Shown piece by piece: positions 28,465 through 47,363 of a DNA stretch of 55,645 bases (its first letter is position 1; each line of letters starts with the position of its first letter). Position numbers and translations under genes: made by a program. The notes beneath the pieces were generated by a model that was not told the origin of the DNA, did not search any database, and worked only from the letters and a program-made list of their open reading frames with translations. The stretch is from Promethearchaeota archaeon (GTDB taxonomy: Archaea; Asgardarchaeota; Lokiarchaeia; Sigyniarchaeales; SOKP01), in assembly GCA_019058245.1 (NCBI GenBank), contig JAHPZJ010000022.1:1-55645 (forward strand), read 5' to 3'.

Positions 28465-30141
28465 TTGTTTGATAATGAATATTTAGAGAAAATTAGAGAA
28501 GAAAAAGAAAAGTGGGAAGAATTATATAAGACTCAGAAAGAACGAGATATGAAGTTTGTTACAGACTCAGAAATCCCTATCAAACAACTTTATACTCCTT
28601 TAGATATAAACGATAAAGATTATATAAATGATATCAGTTTTCCAGGGGTACCTCCTTACACTCGAGGTGTTTATCCAAGCATGTACAGAGGAAGACTTTG
28701 GACTATGCGATTGTTTTCAGGTCATGGAACTCCTGAAGAGACCAATAAAAGGTGGAAATTCCTTTATGAAAATGGTGAAAGTGGATTTAGCGCAGCCGTA
28801 GATAACCTAACCTTTAATGGAATTGACCCTACCGAACCCGACGGTGCACCTGAAGTTGGCACCTCAGGTGTACCTCTTTATTGTATTGATAGTTTTTTTG
28901 CATTAACTGAAGATATTCCCATCGATAAAATCAGCGTAGCATTAGTAGTAGAACCTTTTACTTCTGCTCCTGTTTGTTCTATGTATTTTAATATGGCTCA
29001 GATGCGAGGTTATGACATAAAAGAACTGATTGGAACAACTCAAAATGATATTTTAACTATGACAGTAGGTTATATTCCGTATAAAAATTCTCCTCCTAAT
29101 CATATACTTCGTTTAGCGTGTGATTTGATTGAATGGACTGTGGCAATGAAGAATGTCCCTAAATGGCATCCAATAAATTTCACAGGATATAATTATAGAG
29201 AAGGGGGAATTGATGCTGTACAGGAATTAAGTTTTGTATTTGCAAGTGCCTGTTCACATATTGATAATTTAATTGAAAGAGGATGGAAAGCAGATGATTT
29301 TGTAGGGCGTTTAGCATTTCATTTAGCAGCTCATAAGGATTTCTTTGAAGAGATTGCGAAATTCAGAGCTGCTAGAAGAATTTGGTATAAATTAATGAAA
29401 GATAAGTATGAAGTTCAAGATCCTAGAAACTTAGGGTTTCGATTCCATGTACAAACAGCCGGATCTTCCTTAACTGCACAATCACCTAAAATTAATATAA
29501 TTAGAACAGCAATTCAAGCGTTAGAAGCAAATTTGGGTGGCTGTCAGTCTTTACATACAAATTCTTATGATGAAGCAATTTGTTTACCTTCTGAGGAAGC
29601 AGCTTTAATAGCGTTAAGGACTCAGCAAGTAATTTCTGATGAAACTAGAATCCATAATACCATTGATCCTCTAGCTGGATCATACTTTATAGAATGGTTA
29701 ACAGATGAAGTTGAAGATAGGGTATGGAAATATATAGATAAAATCCAAAAAGTTGGATCTATTGATAAGGCTCTCTCTACAGGATTTCTATACAAAGAAA
29801 TGAGAGATGCCTTTCATAAACGACGAATGAAAATCGAAAATGGTGATGAGATAATGCTTGGTGTTAATAAATATCCCGTCCCTTATGATACAGTTACAGA
29901 TGTTTTTAGAACTAATAAAAACGCAATTGATATTGAAGTTAATCGTATTGAAAAGCTAAAAGCTCGAAGAGATAATAAAAAATTAGAAACTATTTTAGAT
30001 CAACTTAGAGATGTTTGTGAGAAAGAAGAAAACGTTATGCCTACTGTTATGAAAGCTACAAGAGAAGGTGCTACTGTTGGGGAAGTTTGTAATGTATATA
30101 GAGAAATATGGGGAACTTGGGATCCACCATTAGCAATTTAA
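28465..30141 (+). CDS. AdoCbl-dependent acyl-CoA mutase, large (substrate-binding) subunit
   Basis: PYTRGVYPSMYRGRLWTMR, GTTQNDIL, EIAKFRAARR, QTAGSSLT, SLHTNSYDEA, DPLAGSY. Confidence 0.93.
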   Translation: MFDNEYLEKIREEKEKWEELYKTQKERDMKFVTDSEIPIKQLYTPLDINDKDYINDISFPGVPPYTRGVYPSMYRGRLWTMRLFSGHGTPEETNKRWKFLYENGESGFSAAVDNLTFNGIDPTEPDGAPEVGTSGVPLYCIDSFFALTEDIPIDKISVALVVEPFTSAPVCSMYFNMAQMRGYDIKELIGTTQNDILTMTVGYIPYKNSPPNHILRLACDLIEWTVAMKNVPKWHPINFTGYNYREGGIDAVQELSFVFASACSHIDNLIERGWKADDFVGRLAFHLAAHKDFFEEIAKFRAARRIWYKLMKDKYEVQDPRNLGFRFHVQTAGSSLTAQSPKINIIRTAIQALEANLGGCQSLHTNSYDEAICLPSEEAALIALRTQQVISDETRIHNTIDPLAGSYFIEWLTDEVEDRVWKYIDKIQKVGSIDKALSTGFLYKEMRDAFHKRRMKIENGDEIMLGVNKYPVPYDTVTDVFRTNKNAIDIEVNRIEKLKARRDNKKLETILDQLRDVCEKEENVMPTVMKATREGATVGEVCNVYREIWGTWDPPLAI

Positions 30142-45069: not shown

Positions 45070-45220
45070 CTAGAATCCCCTCATAAAATCACATCTATCT
45101 CGCATTAAAAACTAATTAAGTAATAGAGTATTTCAAAATATAATAAATTATTAGATTAATAAACAATGAATAACGATAGAAAAAGATTAAAACAAGGGCT
45201 AGTTCAAGAATATTTTGGTA

Positions 45221-46522
45221 TTATTCAGGTCTTTTTCGTTGTAAGCTATTAGAATAAACTGACATCATTTTTTTATAGATTTCCGGTCCAATTGCTAATC
45301 TATAAGTTCCTTGATTCTTATCCTTAAATCCAATTTTATTATAAATTCTATAAACATTCTTTATATCTTGAAGTAGTGCTTTACTCGATGATATTATTTC
45401 CCCTGAAAATTTTAATCCTTTTCTATTATAATAAACGGTACCATCACCATCGAAGTAGCCTAATAACCAAGCTAGACCAATTTTCCTTTCTTCAGAATTA
45501 GATAATGATTGTTTCTGGTTAAAATCCATTAATTTCTTAATAACTTTTGGAACTCTTTTCTTATCATCTGATGAACCTGATCCGAATTTACTATTATTGA
45601 CTAAAGCTTCTCCCATTGGAAGGCATGTAAATCTCAAATATGACATCTCTGATAACGAGATACTCCCATCCTTTAATTTAACTAACCTTAAACGATCCTT
45701 TATATTCTCTTCACTTATTCCAACAAATTTCGCAAGCTTATAAAGTTCTGATTTATCTTTACTTGAAATTTCTAATGAAATTTCATATTTGTTAGTAGGT
45801 CGGACATATAAACTCGCATCTGCACATAGGAATCCAAGCCAATATGCTTTTTCTACTGTATCAATTTCGTCAAATATATAGGGATTCTTTATAGAATATT
45901 GTTGATGAGAATATTCTGGTAAATCTGAATTACTTGAAATATAATCATCAATCATTAAAATGAAATTTTTTGCTTTACATCCAAGAATCTGATAGAAAAT
46001 AACCTTGAATTTATTTAATTTTCGAATTGATAATTTCTTATTTGGATTAAATTGAGGAAAATTTGGGTTATTTAAACATTGCTTTAAAAAAGCAATATAT
46101 CTCGGATTTCCAAATAAAAGAATAGAGATTTCTTCATCCAAAACTTCGATTAACCCAGAATAACGCCCAATTTCCATTCTCAATGATTCAATGAAGTCAA
46201 GAGACTGAATATCTTTATTAATGAATCTCTTTATTAATTTCAGACAAGTATCTGATTTTGCCCCTAAAATAACATTTATATTATTTTTTAATTTCTCCAT
46301 GGCTGTCCTAGTTATTTCAGAACCTTTCCTTAATCTAACCTTTAATTTATTAACATCCATCCCCCATAATTTAGAAAATTTTGGATCTGATAATCTTTTT
46401 ACTCTCTCAGGAAAGATTTCTGCCAGTTTTTCTCCGAAGTTTTGCAGTTCAATCTTTAAACTTTCAATCAATTCCATAGGATTCATTGAATATATAAAAA
46501 TATTTATCGTTTTTAAATTCAT
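45221..46522 (-). CDS. Free-standing double-motif LAGLIDADG homing endonuclease-like protein with N-terminal extension
   Basis: EKAYWLGFLCADASL and AWLLGYFDGDGTV motifs, SLQRK end; no intein splice residues and no host gene around it. Confidence 0.85.
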   Translation of the reverse strand: MNLKTINIFIYSMNPMELIESLKIELQNFGEKLAEIFPERVKRLSDPKFSKLWGMDVNKLKVRLRKGSEITRTAMEKLKNNINVILGAKSDTCLKLIKRFINKDIQSLDFIESLRMEIGRYSGLIEVLDEEISILLFGNPRYIAFLKQCLNNPNFPQFNPNKKLSIRKLNKFKVIFYQILGCKAKNFILMIDDYISSNSDLPEYSHQQYSIKNPYIFDEIDTVEKAYWLGFLCADASLYVRPTNKYEISLEISSKDKSELYKLAKFVGISEENIKDRLRLVKLKDGSISLSEMSYLRFTCLPMGEALVNNSKFGSGSSDDKKRVPKVIKKLMDFNQKQSLSNSEERKIGLAWLLGYFDGDGTVYYNRKGLKFSGEIISSSKALLQDIKNVYRIYNKIGFKDKNQGTYRLAIGPEIYKKMMSVYSNSLQRKRPE

Positions 46523-46619
46523 AATCGGTTTGAGATTGCTAATTTATTATTTAAAAAAATTAAAATGAAAAAATTCATTCTTTTAACTATTATAAAAATA
46601 ATAAAAAATTTTGATAAAT

Positions 46620-47189
46620 TTGAATGAAAAAAATAGACTTAAACTTGGTCTGGTGCAGGTATATTTTGGAAGGGGTAATATTGCTGTGATTTAGACAGGA
46701 ATGCCTAGAGGTAAAACCACTGCTGCAATAGGGCAAGGTATACGTGCCATTGGACATGGATTTAAAGTATATATGGTTCAATTTATGAAAGGTAGTTATA
46801 AATATGGTGAAATTGAAGCTATAAAAAATATACCCAACTTTGAACTAAAGCAATTTGGTAACCCTGAGTTGATAGCAGAACCAGGAAAATTTGACTTGGA
46901 AGAGGGTCAAAAGGCTCTAAATTACGCTAAAGAAATTATTACTAGTGATGAATATGATATTGTAATTCTTGATGAAGTTGGAGTGGCAATATCTATGAAC
47001 GTTATCCCTGTTGATCCTGTATTGGAACTTATAAAAATAAAACCAGAAAAAGTAGAGCTTATTTTAACAGGTGGACCAAATATGCATCCTAAGATAAAAG
47101 AAGCAGCAGATTTGGTAACTGAAATGAGAATGATTAAACATTATTATTCTTCTCAAGGAATTATTGCTAGATACGGGATAGAATATTAG
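46620..47189 (+). CDS. cobO: Cob(I)alamin adenosyltransferase (CobO/BtuR), interrupted by a candidate 30-nt intron
   Basis: Exon 1 from TTG 46620 (or 46611) gives LGLVQVYFGRG; exon 2 gives GKTTAAIG..RAIGHG, VQFMKG, ILDE, ELILTG, ADLVTEM, GIEY. Spliced product is 179 aa. Confidence 0.9.
46679..46708 (+). other. Candidate archaeal bulge-helix-bulge(-loop) mRNA intron
   Basis: In-frame TAG at 46692; central helix GGGU(46673-76)/GCCU(46703-06); 3-nt bulges AAU and AGA; intron stem AUUGCUGU/ACAGGAAU. Excision gives GGT AAA GGT AAA ACC (GKGKT). Confidence 0.8.
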
Positions 47190-47363
47190 AGTAAGATAAT
47201 GAATAAAAAATACAAATTCTTAATCTTTAAAAAATAGATTTTTCTATGTGAATAATTACTTTTTTCAATTATTTTTGAAAATAATAAGAAATATAATTTG
47301 TAGAAAATTCAAGATTTTAGTATTATAAAATAATAAGAAATAAAACAATAAAATGATGATAAT

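Follow-up and report, generated by a model that had tools for sequence, protein, structure and literature searches.

How can an Asgard archaeon make a complete corrinoid adenosyltransferase from a cobO gene whose reading frame is interrupted in the P-loop, and how did the interruption get there? We addressed both questions in a window of 55,645 nt (the whole stretch of DNA that was analysed), which belongs to a metagenome-assembled, 76%-complete genome, G000. An earlier note on this DNA had described a frame that starts at TTG 46620, is broken by an in-frame TAG at 46692–46694 and contains an internal ATG at 46701; all of these coordinates were correct. Taken as a whole, the locus is probably best explained by a bulge-helix-bulge (BHB) intron that is spliced out of the cobO mRNA by the endonuclease EndA and was spread by collaborative homing of a mobile cassette. 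The features of the locus are listed in Table 1.

Table 1. Features of the interrupted cobO locus (window coordinates).
Feature	Position	Strand	Details
Orphaned original 5' end of cobO, decaying	45166..45220	+	ATG 45166 through Gly-Arg codons; invariant Val changed to Glu
LAGLIDADG endonuclease gene, free-standing, two-motif, 433 aa, open frame	45221..46522	-	Pfam LAGLIDADG_3, E 1.7e-8
AT-rich spacer separating replacement exon 1 from the divergent endonuclease gene	46523..46619		presumed promoter region
cobO replacement exon 1	46620..46678	+	TTG start, 19 codons plus AA
Bulge-helix-bulge motif, HBh' class	46673..46709	+	central helix 46673-76 (GGGU) with 46703-06 (GCCU); bulges 46677-79 (AAU) and 46707-09 (AGA); inner stem 46680-87 with 46695-702
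30-nt intron (predicted)	46679..46708	+	in-frame TAG (46692) and in-frame ATG (46701)
cobO exon 2, host-derived	46709..47189	+	PF02572, E 4e-49

Geometry and distribution of the insert in cobO

The helix, bulges, stem and loop that had been predicted for the insert were present in the sequence, and the MFE fold contained the same central helix, bulges and inner stem. The central helix consists of two G-C and two G-U pairs; the inner stem is paired at seven of its eight positions, with one G-G mismatch, and closes a 7-nt loop. Fold energy alone was unexceptional (z of -0.79 for 71 nt and -2.14 for the 37-nt core), and longer fragments were not significant. The geometry at this fixed site was rare: four of four central pairs together with at least seven of eight stem pairs occurred in 138 of 200,000 shuffled inserts and in 124 of 200,000 random genomic 30-mers, about 0.07%. 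A search of positions 45100–47300 against Rfam gave no match at E up to 1. Group I and group II self-splicing introns and other Rfam RNAs were rejected as candidates, because the insert is only 30 nt long and has no Rfam match.

Removal of the predicted intron generated an open frame of 179 aa. Among all 30-nt deletion registers, only the one expected for EndA produced GRGKGKTT in G000; this is the register whose recreated Lys the earlier note had pointed out. The predicted spliced product is a CobA/CobO-type ATP:corrinoid adenosyltransferase of 179 aa, in which the GxGKGKT P-loop exists only after splicing. Alignment of an intron-less orthologue to the solved CobA structures 1g5r and 4hut confirmed that the intron position lies in the P-loop.

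We then compared the insert with cobO of 61 relatives and 135 family genomes. The fetched loci gave 97 parsed cobO copies, and loci of G108 and G072 and a G087 paralogue, which failed to parse, lie outside this number. The orthologue alignment that had been suggested for this gene revealed inserts at exactly the same site in 20 of the 97 copies, from 20 genomes of four genera; since all suspected carriers were fetched and not all non-carriers, the frequency in the family is nearer 20/112. The remaining 77 copies were uninterrupted and all read G-K-G-K. The inserts were 29, 30, 31 or 33 nt long, and every one contained a stop codon or shifted the frame. Splicing in the EndA register would give AAA or AAG, both Lys, as the junction codon in all 20 carriers, whereas the residue at an in-register junction varied (R, M, I, K or T); no register other than that of EndA restored the motif in G000 or G102. 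Outside the family, none of the cobO matches had an internal stop, in a search that scored internal stops only.

The carriers also conserved the pairing. On alignment A1, the 12 predicted pairs held in 96.3% of the cells, and five pairs showed two-sided changes. Paired cells made up 98.6% of the central helix and 95.1% of the intron-side helix, where all five of these pairs are located. The covariation score of 0.36 was reached by none of 500 shuffles, a control that ignores relatedness, and slid-structure controls were only 31–59% paired. As the carriers are related, these counts overstate the number of independent events. Synonymous exon sites fitted the helix as well: the third base of the Gly codon was T or C in 20/20 carriers, compared with 50/77 non-carriers. 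The loop sequence was not conserved among carriers. Pairwise dN/dS (Nei-Gojobori pairs) ranged from 0.03 to 0.28 in carriers and from 0.04 to 0.12 in non-carriers, and the pooled pN/pS of exon 1 was 0.175 and 0.163, respectively; purifying selection on both exons of carriers is thus equal to that on uninterrupted copies.

In terms of BHB criteria, the 4-bp central helix with a 3-nt bulge on each strand was fully paired in 19 of 20 carriers and had three of four pairs in G025, which contains one A-C mismatch. The 8-bp intron-side helix was present. An exon-side helix adjacent to the bulge was found in no carrier, so the motif has one outer helix and belongs to the HBh' class rather than to the full hBHBh' class, which has both; HBh' is counted as canonical in a recent preprint (bioRxiv 10.64898/2026.10.13.758758). 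Because this helix is missing and the central helix of the carriers includes two to three G-U pairs, the predicted cleavage would need an EndA of relaxed specificity.

Four intron-less alleles (L087, L078, L053 and L054, from G128, G147, G098 and G085) were nested among the carriers, and some of them kept carrier-type exon flanks. These alleles need either precise loss of the intron or back-conversion.

A cassette with a LAGLIDADG gene at the 5' end of cobO

Beyond what the earlier note had covered, the main context of the intron is that of cargo in a homing-endonuclease cassette that replaces the 5' end of cobO. When G000 was aligned with its syntenic, intron-less sister G024, the two were colinear and about 92% identical up to 45218, and about 95% identical from 46710. 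Between these points, 1,491 bp in G000 stand in place of 10 nt in G024. This cassette of about 1.49 kb contains a minus-strand LAGLIDADG gene, a spacer, the replacement exon 1 and the intron. The replacement exon 1 differed at 2/38 positions from the distant G004, but at 8/38 positions from G024, the sister in exon 2. The spacer is part of a stretch common to G004 (about 83%) and missing in G024; a sigma-70 promoter scan of the spacer gave sites not above those in shuffled sequences, which is chance level. TTG 46620 aligns with an ATG in G004. Initiation at this TTG might face competition from an out-of-frame ATG (46624–46626) 4 nt further 3'.

The product of the minus-strand gene is predicted to be a LAGLIDADG homing endonuclease, as judged by its two motifs, their acidic residues and its modelled fold. 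Both motifs keep the acidic residue, and D235 and D360 are invariant in alignment A2. The model had a pLDDT of 87, and its top PDB fold matches were the bI3 maturase, I-AniI, I-DmoI and I-SceI, although a profile sequence search against the PDB gave no match. The first ~215 residues (45878–46522, minus strand) form an all-helical N-terminal extension that was confidently modelled and had no Pfam match; it is common to dozens of family homologues, some of them in much longer ORFs.

The endonuclease gene ends with its stop codon directly at the left cassette junction, which lies 7 nt 5' of the intron position. This arrangement, an endonuclease stop abutting the cobO break, was found in four hosts, and each of them has an orphan 5' end of its own. 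The same cassette with a host-specific orphan was present in G102, G004 and metagenome contigs, with orphans equivalent to that of G000 in G102, G004 and the metagenome locus L159. The orphan copies visibly decay, whereas the cassette exon 1 does not. Between G004 and L159, the cassette was 95.9% identical and exon 2 only 77.4%; between G002 and G121, which belong to different genera, exon 1 plus the intron stems differed by 2% and exon 2 by 27%. The carriers were dispersed over the cobO tree and had intron-less sisters, and their monophyly was rejected on the exon-2 tree (delta lnL 623, p-AU 0.025, quick tree). As judged from these genome comparisons, the intron, exon 1 and the endonuclease gene have moved between hosts as a unit. 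Endonuclease and intron are thus co-inherited and move horizontally together, which is one of the features of collaborative homing.

The cassettes were found in successive stages of decay. Upstream of cobO, the endonuclease gene was located in 3/20 carrier genomes and also on three metagenome contigs, whereas the non-carrier flanks that we examined all lacked it. It was open in G000 and L159 and contained a stop in G102 and G004; in G121, G126 and G112 it was gone and an orphan relic was left; the remaining carriers had the intron only, with no trace of the endonuclease. In loci L141, L144 and L145 (G121, G126 and G112, respectively), a pseudogenised duplicate of exon 1 precedes the splice site by about 120 nt. 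These duplicates are relics of deleted cassettes.

We consider it fairly likely that the endonuclease cuts intron-less cobO, that repair copies the cassette in and that the carrier allele is then immune. In such a course, the enzyme would cut intron-less alleles in the conserved P-loop codons, near the left junction, and break repair would install the cassette and turn the old 5' end into the orphan, while the replacement 5' end would keep cobO working. The intron would split the rebuilt target site and thereby protect the allele, which is collaborative homing. Later, the endonuclease would decay and then be deleted, so that the intron alone persists. The endonuclease gene could be lost by recombination of the two 5' ends, old and replacement, which would put the intron under the native promoter.

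The endonuclease could instead be a hitch-hiker, or an enzyme for another site, beside an intron that is spliced but spread by recombination or gene transfer without conferring immunity. Its target in cobO is one that we infer from the position of the junction only, 17/20 carriers have no endonuclease gene upstream, and homologues at 33–38% identity lie beside many unrelated genes with no neighbouring intron. However, the stop codon of the gene lies at the cobO break in four hosts, each with an orphan; relics mark former cassettes in three of the endonuclease-free carriers; and the homologue in L127 likewise lies between duplicated gene ends. We therefore regard this alternative as improbable, and homing of the cassette as the better account.

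In L127 (G108:C15), a homologous LAGLIDADG gene (36%) is flanked on both sides by a copy of the final ~300 nt of a deacetylase-like gene, the two copies being 77% identical. This is likely a cassette of the same family that replaces a 3' end, and no intron was seen in it. Nine more distant homologues of the endonuclease had no convincing neighbouring intron. At L122 (G102), the cassette and exon 2 are close to those of the window, and the orphan 5' end and the upstream gene are of another host type; this mix suggests a longer conversion tract.

Splicing, expression of cobO and AdoCbl supply

G000 encodes two EndA paralogues, with genes on C28 and C20, and RtcB, that is, both a splicing endonuclease and a ligase. 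A two-subunit EndA has been reported for most Asgard genomes (bioRxiv 10.64898/2026.10.13.758758), and the gene set of G000 is consistent with this. The pre-mRNA would fold into the HBh' motif, a two-subunit EndA would cut after the second base of each bulge, and RtcB would join AA to A, yielding the full 179-aa CobO with an intact P-loop. The same-site inserts, the covariation and the presence of EndA and RtcB strongly support the central proposal of the earlier note, a tRNA-type intron in an Asgard cobO mRNA, and on this comparative evidence the 30 nt are very probably spliced out.

Expression without splicing would require either a short exon-1 peptide plus a 162-aa protein restarted at the intronic start codon, or ribosomal bypass. 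There is some scope for translation restart, since all 20 inserts have an in-frame ATG, GTG or TTG in their 3' portion, ahead of exon 2; in inserts of 29 nt, the ATG and the stop codon overlap. A restart would, however, divide the P-loop (GNGKGKT in Salmonella CobA), and the restarted protein would lack the first strand. The T and G of the NTG are themselves engaged in the predicted pairs, and its N covaries with the base opposite; restart also leaves the bulge geometry, the covariation and the Lys-only junction unaccounted for. For bypass over 29, 30, 31 and 33 nt at one site, no supporting signal was found in these sequences. Expression by either route is very unlikely compared with splicing.

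The earlier note had further suggested that splicing might regulate AdoCbl supply to the mutase of the window. A mutase gene is indeed present (28549–30138). G000 also has a second CobO-family paralogue, which is uninterrupted and retains the complete P-loop (about 41% identical; G000:C10:67723-68277, minus strand), so AdoCbl supply need not depend on splicing and the proposed link to the mutase is weakened. A PduO-type adenosyltransferase was not found in this 76%-complete genome. A regulatory switch, in which splicing efficiency gates AdoCbl synthesis, is compatible with splicing itself; full CobO cannot be made from unspliced mRNA, and the insert has been kept across genera. The patchy presence with intron-less sisters, the cassette origin, the intact paralogue on C10, the absence of an Rfam match and the unconserved loop all speak against it. 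Regulation is thus unsupported and very unlikely, and the intron is most plausibly a selfish passenger that the host tolerates rather than a regulator.

Finally, a pseudogene-making insertion or an assembly artefact, both of which the earlier note had considered, can hardly be credited: the second paralogue could cover a loss and the genome is metagenome-assembled, but same-site inserts occur in 20 genomes and in independent assemblies (identical in G102), the pairing covaries, and both exons are under purifying selection as in intact copies.

Known parallels and other inserts in the genome

In the papers covered by our search, cbf5 was the one archaeal gene with a confirmed intron in its coding sequence (PMC7714728; PMC2738675). 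The known archaeal mRNA cases are cbf5, whose pre-mRNA carries a BHB intron in Desulfurococcales and Sulfolobales (Watanabe 2002; Yokobori 2009, PMC2738675), and a 5' UTR intron of Haloferax (PMC7714728). The cobO insert resembles that of cbf5 in being a short BHB intron in coding sequence, in a conserved catalytic motif, with cuts after the second bulge base, and in its lineage-specific absence. In cbf5, however, the intron is ancestral and inherited vertically with losses, and splicing has been confirmed by cDNA, whereas cobO is an Asgard metabolic gene with a horizontally distributed intron on a mobile cassette and predicted splicing. The BHB intron of Haloferax HVO_1309 is likewise an mRNA substrate of the tRNA splicing endonuclease, but it lies in the untranslated region and leaves the reading frame unbroken.

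For the cassette, the closest parallels come from other systems. Collaborative homing is known from T3/T7-like phages, a cyanophage and the ICP1 terminase (PMC10448857). There, as in cobO, a free-standing endonuclease gene lies beside an ORF-less intron, is co-inherited with it and is thought to cut its insertion site. The phage introns are self-splicing, whereas the cobO intron is 30 nt long, predicted to be spliced by host enzymes and located in a cellular archaeal gene; cobO also differs in having a LAGLIDADG enzyme, a replacement 5' gene end and an orphaned old end. Mobile-ORF gene hybrids in fungal mitochondria (Allomyces atp6; Glomus atp6, atp9, cox2 and nad3; PMC3630166) show how an endonuclease ORF can insert together with a foreign gene end that takes over from the native one; the displaced end is more similar to close relatives than the replacement is. 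Those hybrids affect the C-terminus, occur in organelles and are mostly intron-less; in cobO, the N-terminus is affected and a BHB intron is present. At the tRNA-Thr(GGU) locus of Caldiarchaeum subterraneum (Sugahara 2012, PMC3293823), a mobile ORF separates a rebuilt gene, which contains an additional intron, from an orphan fragment of the old 5' end located 1.8 kb upstream. The host there is a tRNA gene and the ORF was read as a recombinase, in contrast to the protein gene, the LAGLIDADG enzyme and the decay series across genomes seen for cobO. We found no paper on this combination of a cassette and a BHB intron in an archaeal protein gene in a search whose coverage left out most subscription journals.

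According to an October 2026 preprint on Asgard tRNA introns, their route of arrival 'remains open' and they show no general link to mobile elements (bioRxiv 10.64898/2026.10.13.758758). The cobO locus offers a concrete route by which introns may be introduced into protein genes and disseminated, and its carriers represent intact, decayed and deleted cassettes as well as the intron alone. As the cassette decays and disappears, the footprint of the mobile element would usually be missing.

The earlier note had also suggested a search for further inserts in the genome, and three other genes were confirmed to carry them. In ahcY (contig C10, minus strand, near 121094), the insert was 32 nt long with 4/4 central pairs; in the mevalonate kinase gene (C15, near 8315), it was 31 nt with 3/4 central pairs; and in rnhB (L153; C25, 92012–92041), it was 30 nt with 4/4 central pairs. 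All three contain stops, and removal in the BHB register restores conserved motifs, indicating that cobO is not an isolated case in G000. The interrupted rnhB is the only rnhB found in this genome. Inserts in uppS and cdhA were not confirmed by a short-motif test, the design of which is unsuited to multi-intron cases. A de novo genome-wide BHB scan (ORF joining plus coding score) returned 9,636 motifs, of which 960 joined ORFs; it recovered ahcY, missed cobO because of the short exon 1 and was too noisy to give a genome-wide count.

We lean towards a wider reading in which, in the family of G000, LAGLIDADG cassettes with replacement gene ends seed tRNA-type mini-introns in conserved motifs and then vanish. 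EndA-dependent mRNA splicing would then be routine for many housekeeping genes, and the cobO locus would display this cycle in full, beginning with an intact cassette and ending with the intron alone. Such inserts matter for annotation, since gene callers truncate or miss the affected proteins in the closest prokaryotic relatives of eukaryotes. In the whole genome, ARAGORN called only 19 tRNA genes, many of them odd, which is expected if most tRNA genes of this archaeon carry several introns.
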